A stretch of DNA of 63,856 bases, filler included, from Tricharina praecox (lineage: Eukaryota): assembly GCF_024521635.1 (NCBI RefSeq). It is 3 parts of 3 records of this genome, joined end to end, with 100 filler letters (N's around TTAATTAATTAA, not from the genome) between each part and the next. Parts side by side here need not be neighbours in the genome. Positions count along the whole stretch, not along the records: positions 25,346 to 48,759 come from NW_026250475.1; 2 more parts are not named here. The stretch is one strand, 5' to 3'. Of the stretch, positions 29,636 through 48,859 are shown piece by piece (positions within the stretch are counted from its first letter, which is position 1; every line of letters begins with the position of its first letter). The translations under genes were made by a program, and so were the position numbers. The notes beneath the pieces were generated by a model, which was given only the letters and a program-made list of their open reading frames with translations, was not told where the DNA came from and ran no database searches.

Positions 29636-31139
29636 CTTGTTTTCCTACTTCGCTACCGGTTAGAAAATAAGCAGACGGAGAGTGGAGAAGAAGGTGTAGG
29701 ACTCACGAGAAATTGTACTTGTAATCCTTTGCTTGAGCCGACTCGCAGGGAGGTGTGAGGACTGCGATCGACAAGGACGGTTATCGAGATCTAGTGGAGT
29801 GCTGCGCGGAGCAGACGAGCGTGTAGAGAGCCCAGATGTTGTATGGAATAGTCTGCACAGCTGCGCGCCTGCGTTCTGGTCGAAGATGGAGAATGATCCT
29901 TCGAAGTGAGGGTGATGATTAGTCCGTCTGGTGCCGTGGTGCATGGAGGGAAGGGGGGTGGTAAGATGAATGCGGTAGATGAGCGACGGTGGGTGGGAAT
30001 AAGGACGGAGGGTGGAGTAGAAGAAAACGTTTCAGTGAAGTCAACCTCGCTCACTGTCGCTAGTCCGGGAGTGGGGGTGAGAGCAAGATCGTGGTTGGTA
30101 ATTCAAGGGCTAGGTGATAGGAGCTACCTGGCGATGCACCGAAGCAGCACGTGTGGATACCCACACGTCCCTCTGCAAAACGTGGTGATTGAGTGTGGTG
30201 TGCATCCTGAATGAAGGAGATCTGAAATTAATACCCATATTCCCTGCGCGTGATGACTTCTTTAGACATAGTCTCTTATCATATTGACCTAAACAGTACT
30301 ACCACTACGTCATTCGCAACACGAGTGAGCGATGCCGGAGCACGTCCCAGCAGATCGTGCCACCTCCGCGCTACCATACTTCGCTAACACGCGGTCAAGG
30401 ATATGTTTGCACTACCTCGAGCCGTGCAGCCATTCACCTTCACACAGATATGGTTACTAAATATTATTCCATCGTCGTCTTTTCCGTGTCTGAATAACTT
30501 TGCTGATTTAGCATGGAGTGCTCACGTACAGGTCTGCATGCCACAGCACACCGGTGCTCCTATAAATATGATTTTGTGCGAATAACCGGTACCATATCAG
30601 AAAAAACCCACAACAGTACACGCAATGCGGCAGTTGCCTGTTCAGCTTCCAACCATATCTTTTTATTACGTGCGGTGGAGTTTCGAAATGCGACACACAA
30701 CGCGGCCTGATCAATGGGAGGGTTTCTGGAATCGCGCTTAAATAGCAATACTTATGAACTTCACTAAATGAGGTTACAGCATCAATCGTTACAACGATTA
30801 TAGTTGACCGATTGGGTAACATCACATGAGTGCCTTATTTTTTCAGCCACAGATAGTAATCTAGCGACCTCCCCGCGGATGCCACGCTGTCCTGCCCTCG
30901 GATACGACACTCTCAACCCCTCTGATTCGCCCGACAAATGATACGCTGGCTTCCGGCCTACTGAACGAGTAGCGCAATGAAGGCGGTATATGACCGTGAG
31001 TAGGAAACAGCCTACATTTCTCTGGAGGAAAGAGTAGAACGCCGGGTGGCGGTAACGATGGAGGTCATTTCGAAATACTATTATCATAATGGACAGGTTT
31101 GTAACCTGCAACCCTACTCTGCTCCCTGCACGTCACGAT

Positions 31140-34100
31140 TCACGGGAAGAGATTCGGTAGTTTTGAAGAAGAGTGATCGGAAAACAAGAAGATAAAATTA
31201 GAGTGTCAATTGCAAAAACTAATTACACAGAAAACATTGCAAAATAAAAAAGACCAAGAATCTATTCAAAACGCCTTAGATGCACCCAGCGCCTTGTGAA
31301 AATGAGGCTTCATGGTGTACTCTGAGGCATCGCCGAAAAGAAAGCCACCTTGATTTTCTTCTTCTTCATGATATTTGCGTAATGGAGGAGTGTGTTCCAT
31401 GTATTTTCACTGACGGTAACCTTTTACTCCTCAAAACTACTCACTAGATGGAACATGCCACTGGTATCGACCTCAACCTTGTTCCTGAATCCGCTAGATG
31501 GGGGCGGTAAGTGCTGAGGTCTAAAGTATATCATCGCCTCCCGGACCGCGGAGTCCGCCTGCTCGTCCACTCGAAGCTCCATCATGGCGGCCTGCTGTGC
31601 ATCGTCGAACGTCGTCGAAACAGGCACCTCCGTCCGTGGGGCAGTGATCTGACTCTTGGAGTACGAGCTGCCAATCGCAGCCCCTGCCAGGCGGGCATCC
31701 GCGGCGGCCCGGGGCCGCAACTCTCCAGTTACCACTGTTGTGGCAGCACTACCACCATACGTGCAGTCGGCATTATTGCCGGCAGAAGTGCTGCTGCTTC
31801 CCTGAGCAGCAACGCCACTTCCCACAGGTCCCGAAAAAGGGGACAGTCACCGCCAGCGGTGACTCTCTGCCTCGTGCCCGGAGCGTAATGCTACGATGGG
31901 CGACAGGGCTGTACTGCAAGCAGATTTGCTCCTCATCACGATCCCCAACAGGGCAGCCACGGCTTTCGGCATGACTCCCTACCCCCACAGATATGGGAGT
32001 ATTGCCGCGATTAAACAAACCCGACCATCGTCTGAGTCCAAACCGCCGTCAGCGACCAAACCGTCGTCAGCGACCATATCGTCGTCAGACCTACACGGCG
32101 ATTAGCGGGCCGAAGAAGTGTAATTGATCGTGTCATAAACAACTTACATATGTGCGATTGAGCTGCTCATCGCGTGTTGCGGGCGAACAAAAAGGCCAAT
32201 TCGATGCCTTCCTGAGCCGAAGAAGATGAAAAAGAAGAAGAGACCAGAGTCAGAGGTTGATGACGATTGCGGATTCAGGGTTTTGGTTGCGAGCTCGAAT
32301 TTGCGTGCTTTCATTTTGGATATACCTTTGCCATTTCTTTCTTCTGCTTGACATCGCCAATCATTCTCGCCACCATCTTCGCGCTGATGTTTCGGAAGTC
32401 GTCCAGCTGTTCTTCCAAGACCTTGTTGATACGGAGCGCAAGGCGTCAAGCAAAGAAAGGTGGAGTGGAGAAGGGGTTTGACTCATCACGGGCCCTAGAG
32501 GGGAAGCCACAGCTGTCGCCGTGGCCCGCTACTTCCACGGTTGTGGGAGTAGCGCCGCAAGAGCGGAAATGGATTCTGAATCCAAATCTAGGTGTAACGA
32601 TGGACATCGTCCTACAGAACGATGCCATGCGCACCCCGAAGATGGTGCCGTACGGAGCCGCTGTTGCTGTTGTAGCGACGGCGCTTGTCGACACAGTACT
32701 TGCACTCCCAGTGAGGTTGGCACTTGACCGTGACAGGGCCCCCGTGCTGCCAGATGGCAGACGTCAGCCTCTGCCCGCTTGTGGTTTGCACAGGTGCCGG
32801 TTCCGGAACGGCCGGGGGAGGATCATCCGGAAGGGTCGGGAGCCTGTAATACAACAACTTGCACAAGGCGTGATTGGGCGGGCTCAATAACATCTCCAAC
32901 CGAAAGTTTGCTGGCTCCCAGATGTCTGGTAGCGAGTGTTGCTTGAGTAATTCGCCCTCTCCCACGACCAAGCCTCTTCCTCATCACGGGCCCCAGAGGG
33001 GCAACCACGGCTTTGGCCGTGGCCGGCTACTCCCACAGCTGTGGGAGTAACGCCGCAAGACTGGCAATGATCACCAGCCGTATCGATGGTGAAACATCCT
33101 TCTTGTAGTACCCCACTGAACAGGCAATAGTTAGTCAAGCACCGAGAGAAATACGAATCGGTTTGGAAAATGAGGAGCTCACTTACCTCTCGAGTGTATA
33201 GCTCTCACCTCCGCGGTGGTGCAACGCAAGGCACAGTGGCACGTCGGAAAGATGCAAACTGAAAGTACCATCACTAATCAGTATAGTGAAACGATCATAA
33301 CATATGCGATGGAGAACCAACGAATCATCCACGTACCGCATAATCAACGGCCCAGGAAGGCAGGCTATGGTCCAAGTAAACGTTCCAGCCGATGGAAACG
33401 CTTACATGGGGCATGGCCGCGTTTGCAACAAAGGATACACTTCAGTGCCAGTGGCGACGTACAACTCTAATGCAGAAGGTGAATTCTCCATAGAATACCT
33501 TGAATATGGTCTAGGTGATGCGTGTCAGTCACTATCCACTTGCAGATGACTGGCTGGAACAGGTTGGAACACGGCTTCCTTGCCAAGAGCGAGACATATG
33601 GGGAAGACGGTGAAAGATGTGAAGTGAAACAGGAAGGGATATGAGATGGCTTACTATTCAGTATAGGATCGGGGTTGTAACGCAATATAGTGGTGTTTTT
33701 TATGATTCGGTGTTGACGGGGAGGATGTTGATGAAGTGGCGGAAAACGAGGGTAGGGGAAAAAGAAGGTGGCGGAAAAAGAGGGTAGCGGAAAGATGAGA
33801 AGGACGGAGCAGAGGGGTGAACGAGGAAGTTCTTAGTGAAAAAGATGATGAGAGGAAGAAGTAGCAAGATTGATTGGAGGAAGAGATGAGGAAAGATGAG
33901 GATTAAGGAAAGGAAGAGGCGACGACTAGTGGCAGGAAGAGGCACCCTTTAAAGAAATTACCCGAGGAGTAATTTCGCCGACACTAGTAGGGTTATGCAA
34001 CTTGTGAAGTGAGTACCGTGGAACTTTTAAGACCGTCGATTTTAGGGCACGGAATAGAATATTGGACCGTTTGGGCGGGGGAGTGAGACAAGTATCAAAC

Positions 34101-34160
34101 CATCCGCCGCCAAACATGCGTAACACGTCACTGATTGTGTCATCGCCTATACCATGAGCG
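31140..34160 (-). ncRNA. Unit A: candidate spliced, structured lncRNA locus (or decayed gene), inverted paralog of 39720-43025
   Basis: Shares upstream/promoter block, internal module and 3' block with unit B. Canonical-looking introns 33336-33274, 33186-33116, 32147-32091. No long sense ORF. Three tri-hairpin modules. Confidence 0.4.
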
Positions 34161-36144
34161 GGCGCAGTAAGCTGCTACCAGCCAGTAAGGCGTGCAAAGT
34201 TTTCCCGCACTTTAAGCAACTGATTGGACGAACGCCATCACAATCAGCGTAACACCCGGGACTGTTAAGGATGATGCGACCGCGTCCTGTTGATTTATCT
34301 TACGTGTGTATCCCATAGTAGCAATTGTAAATCTACCACGCTCTCGCTATTCGTGCGGAAAGTTCATATCTAACTGTTTCCCATCATGCTGTCGAATCCT
34401 GTTTCGCATCCACGATAATCGCGCTAACACAGATCAACCACTGTTCCCAATCGATCCCATGACTATTCCGACCGATTAGCGATCATCATCACCGTCCACC
34501 ACTCGTTCGCGCAGCTACCGCGGTCCCGTGTTGTGTTGAAGACTCGAAGATGCGTTCGCTCGAGTCTGGTTAGGCTGCATGACAAATAAACTGAAGATCT
34601 ATCTTTCTCTCTGAAATGTGGGAGTTGCACGCGAACTTATCAGCTGCTGCAAGCTCTTATCATGCTGCGTCCCGTCCGTGTAAATGTACGCGTAGACCCT
34701 GTTTTACGGGCAAACGGAGTGGGTGCCTGGTGCAGCATCGAAAGAGGGGATGACTTCGACATGTCCGTCAACCCCAAAGCAGGAGCAGACACAGGCAGGC
34801 TCGCCACCACCGTCTTGTACGAATATACGGGCACGATCCGGTAGTGGACCAGCTCATTAATACTGACACATAATATCAGTCTCCCAAGAGCGGCCAGTAG
34901 TGACAGGTGGAGTCAGCGAAGAGTGCGATGAGCAAACCCGTCATCACCGTGCTTGGGAATCAGGGACAGACGGAGAAAACGGTGCATCTGATCGCGGCAC
35001 GAGCGCTCGATTGCGCGCTCACTAATGAAGACGAACTTCCGGACCAGCTCCACGCCAGCTGAAGGCTTGACACCCTTAGGATACTAAAGTTTCCCGGATA
35101 TATGTCAGACGCAGACCCAAGCTGTCGGCGACAACAGTGTCTAGCTTGACGGCGCTGTATAGGTTATTTACGACTCCACTAGGCGGCGACAACGCCGCGT
35201 CCAATGATCTCCGACCACCGGCACAAGAAGCAGCGGTTGACAAACGTTCCGCCCTGTACAACCTGGTCAGAGGCATCATCTGGTTGCACGGACTCATCAG
35301 GATCGATGAAGAAGATGCCTCACGACATCCCATGCCCCGGCAAGAAGTAGCACCCTCCAATCCGTGCAGCATGTCGCTGCCATCCACCGGCGGCAGTCTG
35401 TGATCGCCATAGAGATTTTATGGTTTCGGACTCACAAAGTCACTCCCAGAAACGCAAAGCGCGACAAAAGATCGAAGTTTGCAGCCGACGACCTTAACGC
35501 CGGCAGTTTGCGGTGAATGGTCCCTCCACTCGTCATTCGGTGCATAACTGAGCGACAACCACCCCCTTCGCGAGCATACTTGTAAAGCGGTGTCACGGAG
35601 GCCATTGCCAAGGAAGCGGGGGCATAACTAGACCAATAGACATCTTTACGCCCGTTGCGAATGTTGTCGATATACGCCTCGCACCTGGTAGCAGCCTCGC
35701 GATTGATGCCCCTGTGGGGCTGTGCAGACAAGCTAATCTGGGCTCCTCTATGATGAACGGTGTGGGCAGGCGGTCCCGCTGGTCGCTGGGCAGGACGCCG
35801 TAAGTAAGGCGTCCGCGCGCGAGGAGGCCCGATGAAGCGGAAGAGATACAGGTGAAGAGGAGGTGAGAGAAGGATGAGGGCGGGGAGCACGCGGATCCTC
35901 CCGGTCACTCCCAGCTTTCCACATTAGACCCTCCGAATGATGTCTGCGAGTGTAGGGACAAGCAACGCGGCGGATCTTGATATAGACGTTTATTTTACTA
36001 GCTCATACTTGATCTGGTGTGCACTACATGTATCTCTGTTACCGGTGAAGACGGAGGGCGGGAAGATCTTCATCATCAATTCTCACCAAAGTCTGGCTGA
36101 ACAGTGAATGTTGCGATTCTCGGGCGGAACGATCGAATGATGGA

Positions 36145-37384
36145 CACGATCCTCACTACAACACACTCGCATCCTAGTTTCGCCAAGAAGCTAAGCGCGT
36201 GCCGTGTTTCTATTCGCTGATTCCCACATCGCGGATTTTACTTCGACTTCATTCCTACCCCTCTTGGAATGTCGCAGCGCACCTACCACAAGTGCGGGCG
36301 CGGCGGTCCACCGCCTCCCCTCCACCGCCCTCAGAGCCAATGGAGGAAGCTGATCGTTCCGGCCGTGTCTACAACGCGTCTGACCATGTCTACGACGCGT
36401 CTGATCCGTTGCTGATCGTTGCCGAAATCCATCACCTGTAGACAAACCTGTTCGCAAACCTTCAGACGATGTTTCGCCAGGAGCTTGGGCTCGTTAGCGA
36501 TGGTGTCGAAGATTCAGCAGGACGCGTCAGAGAACTCGTATCCGCAGTACGAAAGACGCGACAAGAGACAAGGGACCTCAAAGCCCTTATGGAGACGATG
36601 AGTGAGAAGATCGACAAACTCACAGAGGAGAACCGGGAACTCCGGGCGCAAACACAAGCAGTGACAGCTCCACAGCCGCTTCCGCCTCCTCCATCGACAC
36701 CACTTAAGCGGCCAAAACGGAACCTGACGGGACCTCAAACACCCCATCAGCCGACGAAGCAGCTGAAGAGTACCTCCCCGACATCGGTTCTCATGCAGTC
36801 GGAGCATGCCGGTGTGAGTACCGAGCCCACGCAACCACTACCGTCAACATCGGCCGCGGCCCCCAGGTCCGCACCTCTCCATGGTGAGATGGAGGAGAGA
36901 TGGAAGAAAGTCGAGAGGAAGCGAAAAGGGAAAGGGGAGGGGAAGAAGAGAGGGGTGGGACTTGGAAGAGAGGGAAGTGTCTCGCCATGGGCTGATATTG
37001 CTCGCGGAAGGGGCGGCGTGCATGTGACCGTCTTCATCGGCGAGAGCAAGAACGCCAGGCGGTAAAAGGCACCCAAGCCCCATGTAAAGGATTCGGAAAA
37101 CATTCGAAAGAAGGAACAGAAGGCAAGTGGGAAGAGCGGGCGAGTCAGCCCGTAGGGGAGAGAGGAGAGGTGGAGAGGGGCGGGCGGGCATGCTGGCCCA
37201 TTTCAGTCTTTACCGTGTATCTACCTTTTTGGGACAGGCCGGGGCTGGGGGGCAGGGAAAGTCACATCGGGTCGCTCGATGCATGTCGATTTGGACAGTG
37301 ACGTGGAAACAGGGGGGTGAACGGGGTGATATTGCTATGATCTACATAGGTCGCATGCAATTACTGAATAAACAACAAAAAAAA
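36145..37384 (+). mobile_element. Non-autonomous LINE-derived retroelement, copy 2 (~1.24 kb) with truncated ORF1/gag-like coding remnant (36469-37065)
   Basis: TSD GATCGAATGATGGA (36131-36144) / GATGGAATGATGGA (37385-37398). AATAAA plus A-tail at the 3' end. Coiled-coil, basic patch and SPWADIARG motif reminiscent of Tad1-like ORF1. No RT. Confidence 0.85.
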
Positions 37385-39916
37385 GATGGAATGATGGAAC
37401 GACGGAATTTCATTGTTTGTCACTCGACTTGTGCAGAGTATTCGGGCAGAATATGCGGGCAGATTGGTCATGTTGGTATTACGCACGCGTCTTGAGAATC
37501 CTCTTTATTCTCATACCTGCTCTTTCTGCTTCTGTCCAGTATGTCTAGCTGGTCATCCGCTGTGTTTTTGCGAAACAGTCAAGCAATCGAACATCACACT
37601 CATATTTTCTCAACAGTGAAGAGTGGATAGGAGACGGCTGTTCTATTTTCATGATCCAGATGATACTGTGCAAGCACTCAACATTTCACAGGCAACAGTC
37701 AAAGATGGTTGGGTGGACTCGCGGATCTTGAGACGGCGTTGGGTACTCGAAAGAATGAGTAATAGTGGAGTCGAGCGCCGGATATTTACCTAATGACCGT
37801 TCACGTTCAGGGCAGCTGGTAAAAAAACGACGAACACCCTGATTACGCATCAAAAGATGCAACCGTAGAAGCGTTGGCACATTCTGGATCCGTAATTGCA
37901 GCTTTAGAGGAATATATACTCAAAATTCACAATGCGGGTCCCCTAGCCACCGTCTCCATCACCGTCGGCATGTTTTGCGCCATCGACAATAGTAGGATTC
38001 CCTTTTCCGTGTAAAACTCGGGCCTACCCACCTTTGTCCCCCTGTACCTCATCTTGACTGGCGGACCGGATATCTGTCGGTAACGTGGTGTCGCTCTCGG
38101 TGAGATATCCTTACGTAGTCCCGCCGCAGCTGATCGTGTGTCACGGGAGTATTGGATTTTCAGGTGCAGGCAGCAGTGTGATCGAACGTAACAGAAGTGC
38201 TAAAGCTAGTATCTAGCAGAGTAGATGTTAGATAGTGCATAAAAGTAATGATGGTTTTACTTCGGAGGAATGCTTACCAATACGCGTCTCGGGAATGTCG
38301 GTGGTAAGTGTGAGCGCTCCAGGAGTCACGACTACTCGCGGAAATGATTCGGTGCAAGAGTCGCAGAATCGATGGATCAAATGGATAAGGGAGATGCCTG
38401 TCACTCGAATTCCGTTAACCATCACTATCACCCCCGACGTGATTATCATCACGGGCCAACCCCAAACGACGCTCGGCTGGAAGCGATGTAATCCGGGTTC
38501 AGGGCCATGATCTAATTCCGACGAGCTAATGGATATTGGATGACCCTGAAGCTGATCCACAAACGTAACCACCTCCGTAGCACTGAGCCGTCACTCTGCC
38601 TGCGGAGGTTTGAGGTCTTTCTGTTGGCGTCGCCCGATGATCAGTGTAGGAGGTGGTTGGTTGATGCACGTATGTCCGGAGGCGGATGAGAATGGATGAC
38701 GTCGGTATCTATGGTACTGTAGCGGGCGTATATGCTATCCTAGAAGGTCGTCTTAATCATAACGGAACGCATAAGAGCGAAGACACAAGACCTGAAAGGT
38801 GATGGGTACTAACAGTCATGGTTTAAGCGATCATGAATTGTCCGTCGCACTCATGTCGCGTGTTCTGAAAGCAGGTCTGGGATGCATAGGATGTATAAGT
38901 GCTTTGATAGGTGGACAATGCCGCTCGTCTACGTCGGCAGATGCAGCTTTAGGTAACGGAACCCGTTGCGCGAATATAGCTAGTCGGTGGCGATTCTGCT
39001 ATCTTGCTATCGAACCGTGTGATCTGCTTGTGTTGCCGAGCTCCGACGACAGACAGCGGTAGGGAATAGGAGGCAGAAAGGTTTGCAAGACGAGGACCTA
39101 GGTTTTGGGTGAAATTATATTTGGCCGAGGAGTGAGAAATCAAAGGGCTAGAAGGGTTCAGTTGCCGATTTTGTTGGAGCCTGGCACTGGACTGCTTGGA
39201 ACCGAGCGACCGCAACTTCGTCAGGTCATGACGTAACATGGTAAATGCAGTGTTTGCGATCTTGTCTTAGCTTATCCAGAGATTGCATGGCGTGAATCGG
39301 AACATGGCACAGGAGACATCAGCTGAAAATGATCGTTAATACATCTCTCCCCATGCGGTGATCGTGCAGGTTCGTATTCGTCCACTCTTGACTTAGCGCT
39401 CTATTGTTAATACTCATCGGAGCCTGCAACCACAACTAGACTGTAACGCAGAAGGCAATGTAATTAACTGTGTATGCATCTCTATTGTCAACAAACGTAC
39501 TACAGATTGATCACACAGCATGCCGTTGATCAGATGCCCGAGAGGTTAACAGTCGTGGGTTGGACAAATGTCGCAACCGTGAATACACACTGTACGCATC
39601 TTCGTCTGTTGAGTAATAGCACATGACTCACCAGAATTGCGTCGGCGAAAGGCCGGCGCACCAAAAGTAATCTCATCAACCTAGTCGCTGCGAGAAAATC
39701 GCGCAAACACTCACAAGTCACGAGCATGGCATGTAATCAGTGAAGTGTTATGCCTGTTTGATAACGGATGGTTTGATGCTTTTCTCACTCCCCGTCCAAA
39801 GGGTTCAACATGCTATTCAGTACCCTAACATCGACGATCTCAAAAGTGCCACGGTAATCACCTCGAAAGTTTCATAACCCTACTAGCGTCGGCGAAATTG
39901 GTGCTCGGGATTGTTT

Positions 39917-39922
39917 TATAAA
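39917..39922 (+). promoter_or_regulatory. TATA box of unit B
   Basis: TTTTATAAAGGG followed by a CT-rich tract. The counterpart in unit A is TTTAAAGGG (minus strand, ~33945-33953). Confidence 0.5.
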
Positions 39923-40494
39923 GGGCGCCTCTTTCTCCCACTCGTCCTCCTCTCTTCCTTTCCTTCATTCTCATATTTTCTCATCTCTTCCTCCAATCCA
40001 TCCTTCTCTTTCCTCCTCCCCTCCTCTCCTTCTCTTCTCCACAATACGTTTATCCAAATCAACTTACGGTATGCACCCCTCTCTACTACAACACCAACTT
40101 GCACCTCTACACCCTGCTCACTACAACCTACACCATTTGACCCCTGTTCGCTCCACCGTTCAGCATACAGCACGTCATTGCGACACAATTGCTCAAACCA
40201 CTAACAGCGCCCCAGGTACCGCAAGCACCATCCTCCAAATTATCGAGTGCAGATCAGCGCTCCGCACGCTAAGATCGTCAGATACACAGAGGAAATCGAG
40301 ACCGCGGCTCACGAAGGCGCTCACCCCGACGCGATGATGAATTCAGGGTGGGTGTGGCTGCTCCCGGTGCCGAAGGAGGTCATCCGAGATTTGGAGCGCG
40401 TGACGAAGTATCGGCTAGTCGGAAAGAAGTGTTGGGAAGCGACGAGCTAATCAATGTCAACGATTCGCCATTGGATGATGGATTCGCGATCGGA

Positions 40495-42590
40495 TCCGGC
40501 TTCGGCCGGCTACATTTCGCCACCACTAGGTGGCTCCATTTGGCACAGGCTGTGATGGCTGTGCCTCTACTTCTCTCCTGGGGTAATCCCATGATTCCGG
40601 GGCTTGATACCTCGGCTACAGAGACGTAGGTTCACTCTTCTCTATCTCTGTCAGTCTAAGGATGATACTAACTGATACTAACTGATACCGGCGTCCAGGG
40701 CCCAGTGGAGGGGTAACCTGAATGGAACGCTGCTCATGGAGAGAAGTCCGTGGCAGCGCAGCCTTTCAACGTTCGCGGAGCAGCTCTCAACAGAGTTGAT
40801 TATGTGGCGAGGAGCGGAAACTTCGAGGCTAGGCGTCAAAACCGGCAACCCGTTCAACAACCACAAGGAGTACAAGGGACAATATCAGTACCTGCGCCAC
40901 AGGGGCATTCAGCGTAGCATTCACATGGAGCGCCGCATGGACTCCAAGGGACACCATCACAACTACCGGCGCCACAGGGGCCTCATTCGTCATCCTCCAT
41001 ACCAGCACCACAGGGACTTAACGCATCATCGTCACCAGCAGCCGCCCCTCTGGAGCCCGTGATGATATGCACTCTTGCGGCGCTACTCTTACAGCTGTGG
41101 GAGGAGCGAGTAATGGCAAAAGCCGGGGCTGCCCCGCTGGGGCCCGTAATGAGGAAGAGTCTTGGTCGTGGGAGAGAGCCCATCACTCAAAGAACACTCG
41201 TTACCAGATAACTGGGAGCAGCAAACCTTCGGTTGAAGTTGTTGTTGAGTCCCCCCGACCACGTCCTGACCACGCTGGTGGACCACAGGGTTCCGACCAC
41301 GATGGATCCACCCGCCACATTTTACTTCTCGTCTTTACCTCGTGCTGTTCTTACCACCACCTCCATCCACGAAGACCAAAGAAGATGTCGGCAAGCCTCT
41401 GGTACGCGTACAATCTAGTACCCCTAGTAACGAATCCCGGTCAGCGATCGCTCGCACAGCAGCGCTACGACCATGTGCTCACCAATTGGTGGCTTAGTGT
41501 GGGATTATGGAAGAGAGGACTTTATTTTACACCATGAAGCCACAGGGTGGTCCGGCTTATGCCGGCGACATGTCGCCACCCATTAGTGGCTGGGTGTGGC
41601 ACGGGCATTGATGCCCGTGCCTATCCTTTTCTTGTGGGGAAAGATTTCCCCCCTAAGAATACGTCGTCCGGCTTCGGCCGGCGAAATCTCGCCACCGATC
41701 GGTTGCTGGGTGCGGCACAGGCAGTGATGCCTGTGCCTATCCCCCTCCTGTGGGGTAATCCCTATAGGAGGAGATTTTGTCCAGCTTATTCCAGCGACAT
41801 CTCGCCACAAATTGGTGGCTGAGTGTTAGTACAACGCCTTCAAGACGCCAATAACTCGGCACGACTAGCTGGTGACCCACAACCACAAACATTACCCCAA
41901 GTTCTACTTCTCGTATTCGCCCTCCGTTGTTACCACCTCCTCCACCCACGAAGACCACAGACGATGTCGGCAAGCCTATGGTACGCGTACAATCTGGGAC
42001 CCCCAGAGACGCTGCCGGGTCAGCGATCGCCCGGACAGCAGCTCTACGACTACGTCCTGGCCAATCATATAGACGTCCCCTGGGTCCATCATTTCATTGA
42101 TGGGCAGAATACCGCTACGCAAGCCCCCTAGCGGGCCATGCTTGAGGACACTAGGTATGTACAGACAAGTAACCGTCGCCCGGACGGCGCAAAGCTAACG
42201 CACATCTATAGCAACCACTTCCATATCACCGCGCGGTTCTCGCCGGTTGAAGTGGATGTTCACCGGACGATCATCACCACCTTCATTCACCGGACTTCCG
42301 GTTCGCGCCGGACGCATCTCGCCACCAATTGGTGGCTGGGTGCGGCATAGGCAGTGATGCCTCTGCCTATCCCCCTCTTGTGGGAAATCTCCACAGGAGG
42401 AGAAGTCGTCCGTCTTATGCCGGCGACATCTCGCCACTAATTTGTGGCTTGGTGTGGCACGGGCATTGATGCCCGTGCCTTTTCTCTTCTAGTGGGGAAA
42501 GATTTCCCCACTAGGGAGGATGTCGTCCGGGTCGGCCCGGACACATCCTGCCACCGGTTGATGGCTGGGTAGGCTCCATACCCATCAGGC
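40495..42590 (+). repeat. ~112-117-nt structured repeat, 7 complete or partial copies starting near 40495, 41550, 41666, 41779, 42296, 42408 and 42525
   Basis: Full units contain CCGGC-loop-GCCGG, GCCACC-N4-GGTGGC, GGCACRGGCA-KTGA-TGCCYGTGCC and a long CTCCTGTGGG...CCACAGGAG hairpin. Confidence 0.9.
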
Positions 42591-45546
42591 TTTAACCGCC
42601 AAGGTGAAATACTGGTGGGTCCGAGAGAGCGAGTTCCCCTTCACCTAGCGGGTGGTAAAGGGCAATGCAACCCGAAGATTTCGTGTTCGGGAACATGGAG
42701 CCCCGACTGCAAAGAGGTAGGTTCACTGTTGACCATCACACACCTATAGAGAATGTTACTGACTGATACGTAATCCAGGGCCCAAAGGATGGGCGAATAT
42801 GGTGACGTCTGTAGGTTCGACCCGCATGCGGCTATGGCTCATAGCTTCGGACGCCTCCACTTACATGATCTGCCTTTTGTTTATCTCCACACGTTTATAT
42901 ACGCTCTTCGTCTATTATATTCTGCTTTTTGTTTTGTTTAGTTGTTAATTGCAATCGATGTGTCTTCTTTTAGGTTCTGGTTTTCCGAATATGCTTCTCT
43001 GAAGCGGCCGAATCTCTTTCTGTGACTTTCGGCTAAACTATGCGTGCGCAGTGGGCTCAACATACCCATCATGCGTAATGATTTGCAGAGCCACAACTTG
43101 TTGCCATTCCGCCTCCATGAGCCACAATGCTTACTTCAGCCCATACTTTAGCCGAGAAACGGCGGAAAAAGCAACACTCATTTGTGCGTACTCTACAGTA
43201 AACACCCCGGTGAGTCGCCTACACGGTTAACCCGGCTGGTGAAGCTAGATGGCGGCGACTCCTTGATGTTAGGCTAAGGGTGTCGAGCGGAAAGGGTGTG
43301 CCATGTGGGCGGTAGGAAATATAGGAGTTACGTATGCACTCGAGTGATCTGATGGCTGCTTCTCTCCGTTTCGTGCCGCCCGGTTCGGCGCGATTAATCA
43401 ACGCGCAATGTACCCACTTCATGAGTGCCTGTGGGTTGGTATGCAGCGGAGACCAAATATTCCGCCCCATACGCGGTGTACAGCGACTATCCTCCACAGT
43501 GCTACGGTTCCTACATGATAGTGCCTACTACTCCCTACTCGAATTTAACGGCAGACGATGATCGCTGAGATTCCATGGGACGGCGGGCCTGTATTCCCCC
43601 GGACTCTAGGGATCCGGGCGGGTTCATCGCCGCACAGAAGCTGGGAGCCCGGACATAAACTCCCTTAAACGGCAGCTGTTTGTTTGGTGTCGATCAAAAA
43701 GCGAAAACACCATTGTCGCGCATGCAGGTGCAGTGAGGACAATGGATCGCAAGTGAACGGAATGACAATGATACAACAGAGACCCAAGCTTTCGCTGATT
43801 AATAACGACGAGTTTTATTGCTCTCGACGTCGCACGGCGCCCACACTATGCATACTTCCCAAACGTAGCCTCCCTGACCCGCAGAGTGGTCGGCCTGGGG
43901 GTATACGGCAGCCTAACCGTAAGTTTTTTCGTTTCTTACCGGTATAAAACAAGGCTTAAGCACACGGCAGTGAAGATCCTGACCATGCAGATCCCGGAAC
44001 ACTATGGGATAAAGCAAAATCTTATCCGGACTCCGAAGCCGGAACTTTAGTAGCCGATGCGGTCACAATAGTCCTCCCGCAATAAATAAATTCTCCTTGC
44101 CCGCTGTCACCCGGGGTACGTATAGTAATGGCTCGGAGATTATGTTGTTTTAGTTTTCGTACTCCGCATTGGAGTTTTCCAGGCGCCATTCGAGCACTCA
44201 GGCTACGTCTAACGCTGCGGGATATCGAAGTCGCTTACTCGTAGCGGAACACGATTGTATCACTGACCCAGAAGCCGCGACGGAAAGAAAGGTCTCTCCT
44301 GCTGCCGAGCTGTCATCGTGAGGATAATCGTGTAAGACCCGCCGATCCCTCCACTTGCCCGGTATGGGAAGGTGCACTCGATGGGTCGTGTTTGCAGTAT
44401 ATTGTTCCCGGCATATTGACTTGCATCATGCCACGCAGAAGCCCGAAGTTCCCGGTCTGATGGTCCTGTGGATAGTGTACCTCAATGACTTCCTCGCGAG
44501 GTATCTCTAAGTGAGGCCGGACGCGCGGTGAACCCGGAGTTGGGATGTCTGCTGAACCTGTCCATCTCAGTTCCAAACATCAGTTATTTTCTAGGTGCAT
44601 GGTGAATCCCACGACGTTTAGGAGAAGAGGAGTTCGCGTAAATCGCTGCAGGTTTGCTTAGGGTGCTGACGGCTCCAACGAAGAGCTTCGCGGGTGTGAC
44701 GATGGCCCTCGTCGTCGCCAGATTTGATATCTTAAGATGCGCGATGCGAAACGATATTGCAGGCGAAATCGGAGCAGTTTGAGCGATCTCGCGGAGGCGA
44801 TCTCGGAGGTGGACTGCGACATCTCGTCGTAGTGTTCGTTGTTCGAGTGGTTGAAGTCGTTACTGGTAAACTGGTTGTGTCTGCGGCTTAGCCGGGAACG
44901 AAAAACTCTTGCGGCGTGGTTCGCCACAGTCTATGATGTTTCACGTACCCATCGTCGACTCGCGCGTGAATAACACCAGGCCTCCCTCCCCGCGGGTACT
45001 GAAGTCTCCCCGAAACGTCTCGCCGATATTAGCAGTACATTTATGTCTTCCCTATACCTGATCGTCACTGCGGGGCTACTATCTGATGTCCGGGGTGCGT
45101 GGACCTGCAGCAACCCGACCTCGCTATCCGCGATGACTGCACCCAACATTTTCGGTGTTGTTCCCACCGCTTCCGGGAACCCATCACGTTTCGCTATAGC
45201 AACTTCGGAATTTACTCTTCACCGCCGAGACGATCCCCGTATCCTACACACTACATTCATCAACGAGCGGCTCCTTCGCCCGTCAAGCCGCTGGATCCCT
45301 CCGCCGCATCTCGCGCCGCTGCTCCGTCGTACCGCTCCCTTGACAGAAACGAACGGTCCGTGATTAACGTCAATATCGGCACCGGAAATGGGGCGGCTCA
45401 TTGGTGATGTGGCAGGTCCCGTGATGGCGATCCTGGTGCACTACGGTGATAGGAAGGCTACGAAAGGTCAATGCTAAAGTGCTATGGAGAACTGTCGAGA
45501 GGTTTCATGATGATGGTCTGCTAGACTTCAGCAGCTCACTGAGGAG

Positions 45547-45562
45547 GTATATAACCCCCCGC
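45547..45562 (+). promoter_or_regulatory. TATA box of the GH7 gene with an adjacent CreA-type SYGGRG match on the minus strand
   Basis: GTATATAACCCCCCGC about 110 nt upstream of the ATG; reverse complement contains GCGGGG. Confidence 0.45.
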
Positions 45563-45663
45563 ACTGCTACTTAGTTTTCTATCCTTACCAACCCAACAGT
45601 CCTTCATTCACCGGTATCATCCTCACGATCATTCAGCGTCCTTTACATCTTCCACTCTCCAAC

Positions 45664-47095
45664 ATGTTCAACAAGATCGGCCTCCTCTCTTTGGCCCTTG
45701 CCACCGTCGTCTACGGCCAGCAAGTCGGCACTCTCACCGCCGAGAGCCATCCCTCGCTCAAGGCGCAGAAGTGTACTTCCGCCGGCTGCACCACTGAGTC
45801 CACCTCAGTCGTCCTGGACGCCAACTGGCGCTGGCTGCATACCACCTCCGGTTCCACCAACTGCTACACTGGCAACACCTGGGACACGTCTCTTTGTCCT
45901 GACGGTGCCACTTGCGCCGCGAACTGCGCTCTCGACGGTGCCGACTACTCCGGAACCTATGGTATCAGCTCCACCGGCACCGCGCTCACGCTAAAGTTCG
46001 TCACTAAGGGAACCTACTCGACCAACATCGGATCCCGCGTCTACCTCCTCGAGAGCGACACAAAGTACAAGCTGTTCAAGCTCAAGAACCAGGAGTTCAC
46101 CTTCGATGTCGATGTGTCCAACTTGCCCTGCGGACTTAACGGCGCGCTCTACTTCTCGGAGATGAAGGCTGATGGAGGCTTGGCGGACTACCCCACCAAC
46201 AAGGCCGGTGCCAAGTACGGAACCGGTTACTGCGATGCCCAATGCCCCCATGACATCAAGTTCATCAACGGAGAGGTAAGTCATATTCACGTTCTACTCC
46301 GGGCCTACAATTACTAATTATCCTCGCCGACAGGCAAACGTGGAAGGCTGGGAGCCCTCCGACAACGACGCCAACGCCGGCTCGGGCACCTACGGATCCT
46401 GCTGCAACGAGATGGACATCTGGGAGGCGAACAGCATGGCCGCGGCCTACACCCCGCATGGGTGCACGAAGTCCGGCCCCTACCGCTGCGAGGGCACTGA
46501 GTGCGGCGACGGCGACGAGCGCTACTCGGGAGTCTGCGACAAGGACGGGTGCGACTTTAACAGCTACCGCATGGGCGACACGACCTTCCTCGGCAAGGGC
46601 AAGACTGTCGACACCTCCTCGAAGTTCACCGTTATCACCCAGTTCATCACCGCCGACAACACCACCACTGGCGACCTTGTGGAGATCCGCCGCGTCTACG
46701 TCCAGGGCGGCAAGGTGATCCAGAACTCGAAGGTCACCCTCGCGGGCATGGAGCCGTACGACTCGGTGACCGAGGACTTCTGCGCGGACCAGAAGACGCT
46801 CTTCGGCGACACCAACGACTTCGCGGTCAAGGGCGGACTGGAGACCATGGGCAAGGCGCTCGAGAACGGCATGGTCCTCGCCCTGTCCATCTGGGACGAC
46901 CACGCGGCAAACATGCTCTGGCTCGACTCCAACTACCCTCTCGACAAAGACGCCAGCGAGCCCGGTGTTGCCCGTGGCGCCTGTGGAACCGACACCGGCG
47001 TTCCTGAGGACGTCGAGAGCGCCTCCCCCAACGCCTCCGTCACCTTCTCCAACATCAAGTACGGTGACATCGGCTCAACCTACGCCAGCACCTAA
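45664..47095 (+). CDS. cbh1: GH7 cellobiohydrolase I, secreted, no CBM1; exons 45664-46275 and 46334-47095 (457 aa)
   Basis: Signal peptide then [26 protein letters not shown], catalytic [27 protein letters not shown]...CTAAT...CAG intron. Confidence 0.97.
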
Positions 47096-48759
47096 ATCGT
47101 TGGATAGGAAAGTTACTGGTGGGCGAGGCGTGGAGAGAAGGGTCGGGCTGGGCTCGGGCTGTATGATGATTTCGTTTGTCTGTAGTTCTTTACATTCGTC
47201 TGGGAGGTTTTGAAAGGAGGAAAAATGTATACCAGCTGGAATTACTTGTGCGAGCATGCATTGAACCTTCCGTGACGGTGACAGTGCGAGTGTTATCGAC
47301 TGCGACGTGATGAATCTATACCGAAGCTACGGGGCACACTTTGGCCGTTTAGATATTGCTAATAATCAACACAGTCCAACCGGGAGCTATCACTGCCCGC
47401 ATTGCAGCCGTATCCCATGAAAGCCCATATCATAGCAGTGATTTCACCTGAGCGACAAACAGAGGAAATGAACACAGCTCCCAAGCATAAGCTTCAGGTA
47501 GCACACTTGAATTAAAGTAGTTTTCACGGGATATTGTTCTGAAAATTGACAAACCCTCCGAGTCATGGCCAGAGAGGTGTGGAATAAAGTGTTTCGATTA
47601 GTCGGCTCACCGTTGAGCACTCGCTTTTTTTTTTCCGAAGCTTAGCGTTTGATTGGACACACGTCGCAACCCTCATAGATCGCAAGTAATTACTGATTAA
47701 ACAGGAGAAAATGCGCCGCAGCGCATATCAACAGTCATAGGACCGCACGTAACAATGAATTCATGCTCTCTCTATCTCTCACGTCCTAGCCATTTGTCCA
47801 ATATAGGAGTATAAAATCTTGATTATCTTCTGTCTTCTGCAGCGGCAGAAGTTCCTCAGTATACATGCGCTATGTAGACGGCCTCTATGCTCGTCCTGTC
47901 GGCGGGCTGCTCGTATACCACATCACGCTCAGAGCGCCAAACACGACTCGGACGCCTCTGGCCCGGTTGCCAGTTTTCCGGCACCAGATATGACTCGGAC
48001 AAGTTCTAGCGCCACCCCCGGCGAGAGCTACTCCCGCGCCAGGAGTCCCCCAGAGCGATCGGAGGTTTACCTCAGACACCTTTCTATCTTATCACGTTAT
48101 TGGGGTTAAACCGGATAGCCTTCGGTTCGTGAAAAATAGAGCAATCGAGCCGTTGTCTAAGATGCAGCCACAAAGAACTCTACACGGTGATACACATGAT
48201 CCCGGATGTTGAACAAAAGGAGCATTAGCCATTACTCCGGTACCAATGCCTAGCTTCGTGAAGTTAATACAGGCCGACTGTCCCATATCACGAATTTCTG
48301 TGGACAGCGTCGCTTCCGTGTGTTGCGTCATGGGCAATCACTCGCTGCGTCGAGATCTTTCCGTTTTCCGTTCTCACGGAGGTGGTGAGCAGCCTCTATC
48401 CGAGGAACCTCCGCGCCTCCCTCTACATATATCTTTTTTTTTCCGCTCTGTCTGATACACTATACACTACTTCAGAATACCACTTTTCTTAACAGGTCTG
48501 CCGATCGTGGGTGTGAGTGATCAACTGTGATATAACCCCAGCGACCGACCAAAGTCTGGCCGATTAGTAGCGTAAGGAACACAATTCTTCTTGTTCGCTC
48601 GCGACGGTGGCTTTGAGTGAGTGTGGGCCGTAAATCGGGTTGATTAGTAGCTGAACGACCACTCTTGTGTTGGTTGTTTAAAATAGTGACTTCGGGTGAG
48701 CGAGGAGCCTTAATTTTGTCGATCAACAGGTGAACGAACATAAAATGGCTCAGTGTGGG

Positions 48760-48859
48760 NNNNNNNNNNNNNNNNNNNNNNNNNNNNNNNNNNNNNNNNN
48801 NNNTTAATTAATTAANNNNNNNNNNNNNNNNNNNNNNNNNNNNNNNNNNNNNNNNNNNN
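48760..48859. other. Artificial contig linker (44 N + TTAATTAATTAA + 44 N)
   Basis: Identical to the linker at 25246. Confidence 0.97.

Follow-up and report, generated by a model that had tools for sequence, protein, structure and literature searches.

A palindrome-rich repeat array in the exons of a spliced, apparently non-coding transcript of Tricharina praecox

Seven complete or partial copies of a ~115-nt, hairpin-bearing unit lie at positions 40495-42614 of a 63,856-nt stretch of DNA (hereafter the window) from the fungus Tricharina praecox (assembly GCF_024521635.1). All of them reside in exons of a + strand transcript which is spliced and apparently non-coding. The array is best explained, with a probability that we set at about 0.5, as a young, palindrome-rich higher-order repeat hosted by a lineage-specific gene resembling those for long non-coding RNAs (lncRNAs), the hairpins of which are eroding neutrally. 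A preliminary description of the same sequence had proposed that the units are four-way-junction RNAs kept by selection on their pairing. The hairpins are real, but significant covariation was not found, and selection on a four-way-junction RNA is not established.

Repeat units and the transcript that carries them

A repeat search returned seven copies of a 45-nt core, starting at 40495, 41551, 41667, 41780, 42297, 42409 and 42526 (spacings 1056, 116, 113, 517, 112 and 117), and a 109-nt unit in five copies. Five units are full (u1, u2, u3, u5, u6) and two partial (u4p, u7p), with tandem periods of 116, 113, 112 and 117 nt. A 23-nt degenerate core pattern has six matches, all on the + strand and all in 41574-42571, against 0.03 expected from shuffled sequences, none of 100 of which reached six. 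The count of seven units, and their division into two alternating subtypes, as first described, are therefore confirmed. A B-like unit (u1) is followed by A (u2), B (u3) and an A-like stub (u4p), and then by B (u5), A (u6) and a B-like stub (u7p). The units, an additional fragment and the modules preceding the two arrays are:

40495..40612, + strand: u1, B-type, isolated and most decayed; exon 2; 30 of 40 consensus pairs, local z -1.8
41551..41666, + strand: u2, A-type, 116 nt; exon 3; minimum free energy (MFE) -59.8 kcal/mol, 35 of 40 pairs form
41667..41779, + strand: u3, B-type, 113 nt; exon 3; MFE -68.2 (reverse complement -58.2), 36 of 40 pairs
41780..41850, + strand: u4p, partial, A-like, broken linker hairpin and arm 1 only, recognisable to ~41826; covariance-model match of 20.6 bits
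42297..42408, + strand: u5, B-type, 112 nt; exon 4; MFE -62.2, 38 of 40 pairs
42409..42525, + strand: u6, A-type, 117 nt; exon 4; MFE -64.9, 36 of 40 pairs
42526..42614, + strand: u7p, partial, B-like, 7-bp linker hairpin and arm 1, recognisable to ~42590; covariance-model match of 28 bits
41320..41486, + strand: module X1, first copy of a ~165-nt repeat preceding each array, 80% identical to 41902-42065
41902..42065, + strand: module X2, the sole part of the locus with a relative elsewhere (P0002)
41468..41505, + strand: extra arm-1 fragment (CACCAATTGGTGGCTTAGTGTGG) at the end of module X1; 41480-41505 assigned to repeat family D4, the rest read directly

The covariance model of the units, run with filters off, detected no further copy in the window; the 87.2 bits scored by u1 are those of a training sequence of the model. 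A full unit is made of a linker hairpin and three further hairpins (arms 1-3), with stems of 5-13 bp and folding energies of -45.5 to -68.2 kcal/mol. All the hairpins quoted in the preliminary description are present in the sequence, but the linker is broken in two of the seven copies (u4p, CCAGC/TCCAG; u6, CCGTC/GCCGG). In the same way, the stable tetraloops to which it drew attention do occur, yet are not conserved: two of the seven linker hairpins have UUCG, and three of the five second arms GUGA.

Contigs of four public runs were placed on 30000-47500, and those of runs X2, X4 and X7, which come from three studies, were used. The types of the runs are guesses, and reliance was placed only on contigs joining across introns, uncovered parts and depths being left out of account. 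Such contigs span four introns reading GT..AG on the + strand, which, with the inferred limits of the transcript, are:

40069..40215, + strand: intron 1, 147 nt, GT..AG; joined by one contig each of runs X4 and X7
40626..40698, + strand: intron 2, 73 nt, GTAGGT..ACTAAC..CAG, directly 3' of u1; contig of run X2
42155..42211, + strand: intron 3, 57 nt, GT..AG; one contig of run X2
42717..42778, + strand: intron 4, 62 nt, GTAGGT..CTGAC..AG, 3' of u7p and similar to intron 2; one contig each of runs X2, X4 and X7
39930..43026, + strand: putative transcription unit, ~2.7 kb when spliced, drawn from a TATAAAG at 39917-39923, the contigs and the end of homology to a paralogous locus

A 1027-nt contig of run X2 corresponds to 40325-40625 joined to 40699-41424, with one differing letter. 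Contigs of public runs cover 41515-41754, 41771-42151, 42204-42404 and 42407-42714 with no differing letter, so that the sequence of the arrays is no assembly artefact. An intron at 46274-46331, in a GH7 cellobiohydrolase gene further downstream, is also spliced in contigs of runs X2, X4 and X7, and five spliced introns over three studies imply that the contigs are most simply complementary DNA. Exon 1 reaches at least 85 nt upstream of 40068, and is preceded by the TATAAAG and by a CT-rich leader; contig pieces extend to 42939, and homology to the paralogous locus ends at 43026.

Every unit is exonic: exon 2 holds u1, exon 3 u2-u4p, and exon 4 u5-u7p. The + strand transcription that had been supposed is borne out. 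The exonic location of the units in a spliced + strand transcript is what is new here. Introns 2 and 4 share their 5' ends (GTAGGTTCAC) and the first bases of the exon downstream (GGCCCA), with flanks of repeat family D8, a likeness from which it follows that the larger duplication copied the intron along with the unit. The transcript has the features of a repeat-bearing lncRNA: it is spliced, displays no coding signal, and hosts tandem structured modules in its exons.

Folding, stem differences and relatives of the units

The density of structure noted at the outset is confirmed. Compared to dinucleotide shuffles, the two arrays fold with z -8.64 (none of 200 shuffles folds as well) and z -10.99 (none of 100), and in a sliding scan of 39900-43199 they alone stand out, on both strands (z to -9.0 on the +, to -10.4 on the -). 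The four-way junction fares worse. The RNAalifold consensus of the five full units, at -54.08 kcal/mol (-56.04 from folding and +1.96, hence a penalty, from covariation), consists of four tandem hairpins, not of a junction. In this consensus columns 18-23 (CAUCU), the 5' strand of the supposed closing stem, pair with a conserved GGGUG located after arm 1, and not with the 3' end. The closing stem pairs in 70.5% of cells: u3 and u6 form it well, u2 and u5 in part, u1 not at all. Its two versions in the preliminary description, AAATCT/AGATTT and GACATC/GATGTC, had been quoted offset by one base; once in register, they differ by one compensated pair (A-U to C-G) and one change from G-U to G-C (alignment columns 19-119 and 17-121). 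The 3' segment of a unit can equally pair with the 5' segment of the next unit around the linker hairpin, as it does in the MFE structure of the second array. The MFE structure makes up 0.0003-0.0006 of the ensemble, and the four-way junction forms in the first array only.

Covariation was measured under either fold. With the four-way junction 86.1% of cells pair, and five pairs show double changes, where shuffles average 3.0 and 63 of 500 attain five; the covariation score is 0.186 (reached by 11 of 500). The corresponding values for tandem hairpins are 87.5% of cells, six double-change pairs against a mean of 3.9 (51 of 500), and a score of 0.190 (50 of 500). Overall, the covariation measures were reached by 11-63 of 500 shuffles under the junction, and by 13-435 of 500 under the tandem-hairpin fold; according to the calibration of the tool, 5-25% of alignments of related sequences free from constraint give values of this size. 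In slid controls the share of paired cells is 39-50%. The hairpins are real, but owe their persistence mostly to conservation.

The comparison of sister units is the most telling. Nine pairs differ between u2 and u6: none is compensated, one is kept one-sidedly, seven are broken in one unit, one in both. Of the eleven differing between u3 and u5, none is compensated, five are kept one-sidedly and six broken. Pooled, 0 of 20 differing pairs are compensated, 14 are broken and 6 kept, and 6 of 20 is in keeping with a neutral expectation of ~0.25-0.30 (probability of at least six, 0.38-0.58). Double changes, three or four in number, separate the A from the B subtype. The one in arm 2, from G-C to A-U, is the sole clean compensated pair in a core helix; it is located at a CpG, and each of its two changes is a CpG transition. 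The double changes in outer arm 3 go through a U-G state, which u6 still has. The G-U mismatches on the + strand, also pointed out earlier, are in excess when cells are counted (18 G-U and 5 A-C), an excess that fades when pair positions are (9 and 5, p=0.42; tally from the RNAalifold pair table). Rates of change are 0.12-0.30 in paired columns versus 0.14-0.47 in unpaired ones. The proposal of selection on pairing is not upheld by these figures: the RNAalifold covariation term is unfavourable, shuffles are not exceeded, recent stem differences are uncompensated. Lack of significant covariation beyond phylogeny, which the preliminary description itself had named as speaking against its proposal, is what was observed, on five paralogous units only.

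Searches for relatives gave little. No unit relative emerged from a scan of metagenomes with a core pattern of 20 specified bases, in a collection which does not contain the window itself; the one locus matched is a chance match inside a bacterial gene. Among 1.84 billion protein representatives searched with HMMER, a 94-aa open reading frame (ORF) spanning u2-u4p found itself and P0005 only; the latter, a 469-aa repetitive protein 44% identical over 32 aa, was rejected as spurious (tblastn E against the window of at least 0.054). A profile of eight ORF translations from both strands retrieved the window's own ORF only. The sole relative of any part of the locus is P0002/P0003, a 159-aa sequence from two Logan contigs. 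Residues 55-159 of P0002 are 71% identical, over 105 aa and ungapped, to 41871-42185. The match crosses the TAG at 42129 (Tyr in P0002) and continues at about the same level into the verified intron 3, which argues for a nucleotide-level relative rather than for a conserved protein. Residues 1-54 have no match in the window, and no unit is therefore present in the 162 nt upstream of its X module. A 171-aa ORF of the locus and P0002, used as queries, found each other only.

In agreement with the first description, which did not recognise the family of the units, Rfam 15 gave a single match at E of 1 or less in 39000-44000: BjrC80, whose 21.2 bits (E=0.63) fall short of the gathering score of 80. 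Neither ribozymes (hammerhead, twister, twister-sister, hairpin, hatchet, pistol, HDV, VS) nor snoRNAs were matched there at that threshold, and no tRNA gene was found in the window by ARAGORN. Full-text literature searches returned no description of a fungal repeat of this kind, which is no proof that none exists.

Some further candidates were dropped along the way. A snoRNA host gene would be expected to match Rfam snoRNAs and to have hairpins with internal pockets, and neither was seen. Rnt1-type AGNN loops are found in A-type arm 3 only, and the flanks are not AT-rich, as would be the case with organelle-derived GC clusters. Dicer needs a duplex stem of ~20 bp or longer, and stems of 5-13 bp fall short of what a precursor of microRNA-like RNAs (milRNAs) would have.

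Explanations weighed against the evidence

In the explanation preferred here, a founder unit of ~115 nt would have already carried four short inverted repeats, corresponding to the linker and arms 1-3. The founder would have been copied into A and B subtypes, and the A-B block, along with the ~165-nt X module, duplicated again. The hairpins seen today would be inherited from the founder, and be eroding at a roughly neutral rate; the few "compensatory" differences may be the outcome of CpG transitions and G-U intermediates in a palindrome free from selection. The transcript would fold into a chain of ~20 stable stem-loops as a by-product of the DNA repeat. The origin is plausibly to be sought in DNA-level processes, such as tandem duplication and template switching at quasi-palindromes, possibly starting from a transposon relic. 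Template switching is reported to be able to create hairpins, along with changes that look compensatory (PMC8794818), and in yeast transcription is reported to favour mutations at quasi-palindromes (PMC3820800).

Several observations sit uneasily with neutral erosion. Four near-perfect palindromes of 5-13 bp in each unit call for an origin, for which the above processes are candidates. Cells changed on both sides number 7-8, against a shuffle mean of 3.4-4.4 (reached by 10-13 of 500 shuffles), and all 10 unit pairs show somewhat stronger conservation in paired than in unpaired columns. In every one of the five units the + strand is more stable than the -, by 0.3-10 kcal/mol, a weak hint, and the A-to-B changes in outer arm 3 proceed via G-U intermediates, which pair on the + strand only. 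Arm 2 shows no difference between u2 and u6, and in three of the five units it is perfect, despite an overall divergence of 11-28% among units. Finally, five paralogous units give a test of little power, and weak selection on redundant copies is possible.

The same observations feed an alternative which we consider unlikely, though not negligible: that units are functional structured RNA modules, working, in the manner of the Xist A-repeat or NORAD, as a multivalent platform for an RNA-binding protein or excised as ~115-nt RNAs, with stems under selection. Exonic location and + strand transcription, the extreme local structure, the greater stability of the + strand, the cell count of G-U over A-C, and the slightly slower paired columns all go in this direction, as do the pairs compensated between subtypes (one in arm 2, three or four in outer arm 3, one in either of the helices available to columns 18-23). 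Yet covariation is within controls, and none of the 20 recent stem differences is compensated. Conservation is lacking in the loops, where proteins usually make contact; two of the seven linker hairpins are broken, and u1 is largely decayed. The global fold is ambiguous, as the low MFE frequency and the confinement of the junction to one array illustrate. Neither metagenomes nor protein space yielded unit relatives, the X module of P0002 has no unit upstream, and Rfam, ribozymes included, was silent at E of 1 or less apart from the sub-threshold match.

A bolder variant, to which we assign a small chance, sees in the units a new class of modular RNA element in a fungal lncRNA, which would switch between a cloverleaf-like four-way junction and an extended chain of hairpins; the array would serve as a multivalent scaffold or give rise to structured RNAs one unit long. 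The switch would be feasible because CAUCU can pair either with GGGUG or with the 3' end of the unit. If so, the weak + strand bias, in G-U intermediates and in the lower + strand energy of all five units, would be what selection left behind on redundant copies.

Sequences around the units are also repetitive, and a related locus is found in inverted orientation:

41059..41298, + strand: module B4, decayed copy of a second hairpin-bearing family (B), 79% identical to 33074-32834 (-)
31140..34136, - strand: inverted paralogous locus, with common promoter/5' exon, B module and 3' end; no unit copies
33074-32980, 32571-32482 and 32021-31932, - strand: copies B1-B3 in the paralogous locus; a fourth, decayed, at 41059-41160 (+)

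Homology to the paralogous locus involves the promoter/5' exon (39735-40036, 80%), the B module (41059-41298, 79%) and the 3' end (42905-43026). The interior of the paralogous locus differs, and hosts the B module three times, with two or three separate hairpins to each copy. Members of the B family are laid out as CTTGCGGCG, a 12-bp palindrome, a 9-bp hairpin, a CCCC-N3-GGGG hairpin, and then GTGATGAGG. Two B copies are marginal matches to the covariance model of the units (E=0.07 and 0.14). The palindromes are near-perfect in B1, decayed in B2, B3 and B4, suggesting that both loci gain palindromic repeats that later erode. Repeat-induced point mutation (RIP) was considered and dropped, since transitions and transversions between B4 and B1 are 25:24 and since the GH7 protein described below looks basidiomycete-like. 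As an aside, a motif, CCACAGGG, recurs within ~36-nt repeats (family D6) at 40892-41035, 41284 and 41543, through exon 3 and again just before u2. An ORF of the paralogous locus (32615-32980, -) ends in a zf-BED-like motif (Pfam zf-BED E=0.0035, below the cut-off), possibly the relic of a hAT transposase.

Another possibility is that the units come from a degenerate transposable element, non-autonomous and for example of hAT type, as its internal or subterminal repeats; the two inverted loci would then be old copies of it, transcribed from its own promoter. We regard this as improbable when taken alone, though a transposon-relic origin overlaps with the neutrally eroding repeat favoured above. 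Stretches of ~300 nt and 120 nt at the two ends, and one of 240 nt inside, are common to the two copies at ~70-80% identity; the BED zinc-finger relic, weak as it is, the occurrence of an X-like module in contigs of another organism, and an ORF reminiscent of long interspersed nuclear elements, followed by an A-rich tail and lying between the two copies, are in line with it. However, neither terminal inverted repeats nor target-site duplications were seen at the homology boundaries, the common left end has the look of a promoter (TATAAAG and CT-rich leader) and the right end that of a T-rich 3' end, no second locus with units was found in the 64 kb, and the BED match is below the Pfam cut-off.

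The ORF lying between the two copies (36469-37065, +) encodes 198 aa with a coiled coil, and is followed by an A-rich tail at 37330-37385. Contigs of runs X2, X4 and X7 heap up at this tail with many different flanks, and their summed depths are in the thousands in runs X2 and X4. ORF and tail look like the 3' end of a dispersed, transcribed retroelement.

The window is nuclear fungal DNA, and contains genes for the GH7 cellobiohydrolase, an OPT transporter, a DUF676 esterase and U2 small nuclear RNA (snRNA). The GH7 gene (45514-47135, +) is on the same strand as the unit transcript, ~2.9 kb downstream of the units. The solved structures closest to its product are 2xsp and 1gpi, which we take to be basidiomycete enzymes; on these identities the GH7 protein is presumably basidiomycete-like. 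An artificial joint (N44-TTAATTAATTAA-N44) at 48760-48859 means that features beyond 48860, Ty3/gypsy elements included, are not necessarily neighbours of the locus. The U2 spliceosomal snRNA gene (429-625, -) is full length (Rfam RF00004, 136.7 bits), and is the only Rfam match in the whole window at gathering scores. It adjoins a G run (709-885, 177 G, 97% purity) which looks like a sequencing or assembly artefact rather than biology. A 40-nt tandem repeat at 25930-26036 (2.6 copies) has in each copy the palindrome TCGGGATATATCCCGA and then a T run; its marginal match to the covariance model of the units (E=0.05) covers 25972-26074.

Vicinity to the GH7 gene brings in a further, very improbable reading, in which the palindromes act as DNA, as a predicted cluster of dimeric transcription factor sites 2.9 kb upstream of GH7. 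The consensus sequences in question are CGG-N6-CCG for Zn2Cys6 factors, in the linker, and GTGGGG/CCCCAC for CreA-like ones, in arm 3. Six of the 20 CGG-N6-CCG matches of the window fall in 40497-42539, arm 3 carries GTGGGG (its inverse in u6), and GH7 starts at ~45514 on the same strand. Yet the 20 matches in the window are fewer than the shuffle mean (23.65), the local excess merely restates the linker hairpin, stems of 10-13 bp exceed the length of such sites, and the units belong to the exons of a different transcription unit and lie outside the GH7 promoter.

Coding potential is absent as far as the tests reach. The spliced RNA has no long ORF, the longest stop-to-stop frame measuring 238 aa and having no early Met, and its first AUG (40326) opens 38 codons. 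The view of the preliminary description that the array is not a peptide repeat is sound: three of the four periods break frame, in-frame stops occur in u4p (TGA 41820) and u5 (TAG 42348), and the flanking modules show no phase bias, differences by codon phase being 9/11/12 between modules X1 and X2, and 17/17/15 between B4 and B1. A Pfam search with seven local ORFs, at E of 1 or less, gave noise only (YihI, E=0.24), besides the sub-threshold zf-BED of the paralogous locus. One oddity is left unexplained, and not counted as coding evidence. The frame starting at 41022 (41022-42350, +) is interrupted by only four stops (TGA, TGA, TAG, TAG) over 424 codons, compared with 9 and 19 for the remaining frames and 13.4 +/- 3.3 for shuffles, the probability that the minimum of three frames is four or less being 0.007. 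The window for this frame was picked after the fact. Repeat spacings (579, 630 and 858) are all multiples of three, so that duplicated blocks inherited the open frame twice, and its effective length is about half. That the region is, or recently was, coding in this frame, with the four stops bypassed by readthrough or editing, is hardly credible, because, for all the scarcity of stops, the 3n spacings, and the Tyr found at TAG 42129 in a relative with a 159-aa ORF, successive units (periods 116, 113, 112) lie in different frames, codon-phase bias and Pfam families are lacking, similarity to P0002 runs unbroken through a verified intron, and the RNA contigs keep the stops with no differing letter.

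Comparison with known systems

If the neutral reading holds, the locus illustrates clearly that a repeat of palindromic DNA may be taken for a "covarying structured RNA": its folding z-scores are extreme, some of its pairs look compensatory, it has stable tetraloops and it is genuinely transcribed, all with no evidence of selection. It would be a caution for structure-based discovery of non-coding RNAs in eukaryotic and metagenomic contigs. If instead the units are functional, the transcript would be among the very few fungal lncRNAs with a defined, repeated structural module.

The Xist A-repeat and the repeat units of NORAD are the familiar cases of repeats in lncRNAs. Reviews bearing, at least in part, on this subject are PMC8552494 and PMC3734131. 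As in Xist and NORAD, a spliced polymerase II transcript devoid of coding signal carries in its exons tandem modules able to form hairpins. In contrast to them, the module here measures 113-117 nt, comprises four short hairpins, alternates between two subtypes and is present in seemingly decaying copies; no relative of the units turned up beyond this organism in the databases searched.

One of the possible folds, a closing stem around three hairpins, recalls tRNA cloverleaves, short interspersed nuclear elements derived from tRNAs, and modules of the mascRNA type. Unlike these, the units match neither tRNAs in ARAGORN nor the tRNA clan of Rfam at E of 1 or less, their arms are of 10-13 bp with 4-nt loops, and the closing stem is weak and competes with another helix.

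Bacterial repetitive extragenic palindromic (REP) sequences and bacterial interspersed mosaic elements (BIMEs) offer a further parallel, as clustered, short, GC-rich palindromic units of two alternating types, transcribed within longer RNAs, the stems of which are kept mostly by descent. The array described here differs in being eukaryotic, nuclear, exonic, and confined to a single locus within 64 kb, with no associated transposase or nuclease present.

A last likeness is to the hairpins made by template switching and to the quasi-palindromes of yeast. Both (PMC8794818, PMC3820800) offer a selection-free route to perfect short inverted repeats and, in stems, to paired double changes in transcribed DNA. 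For the array of T. praecox template switching is proposed as a likely origin, and the units may have arisen along this route.

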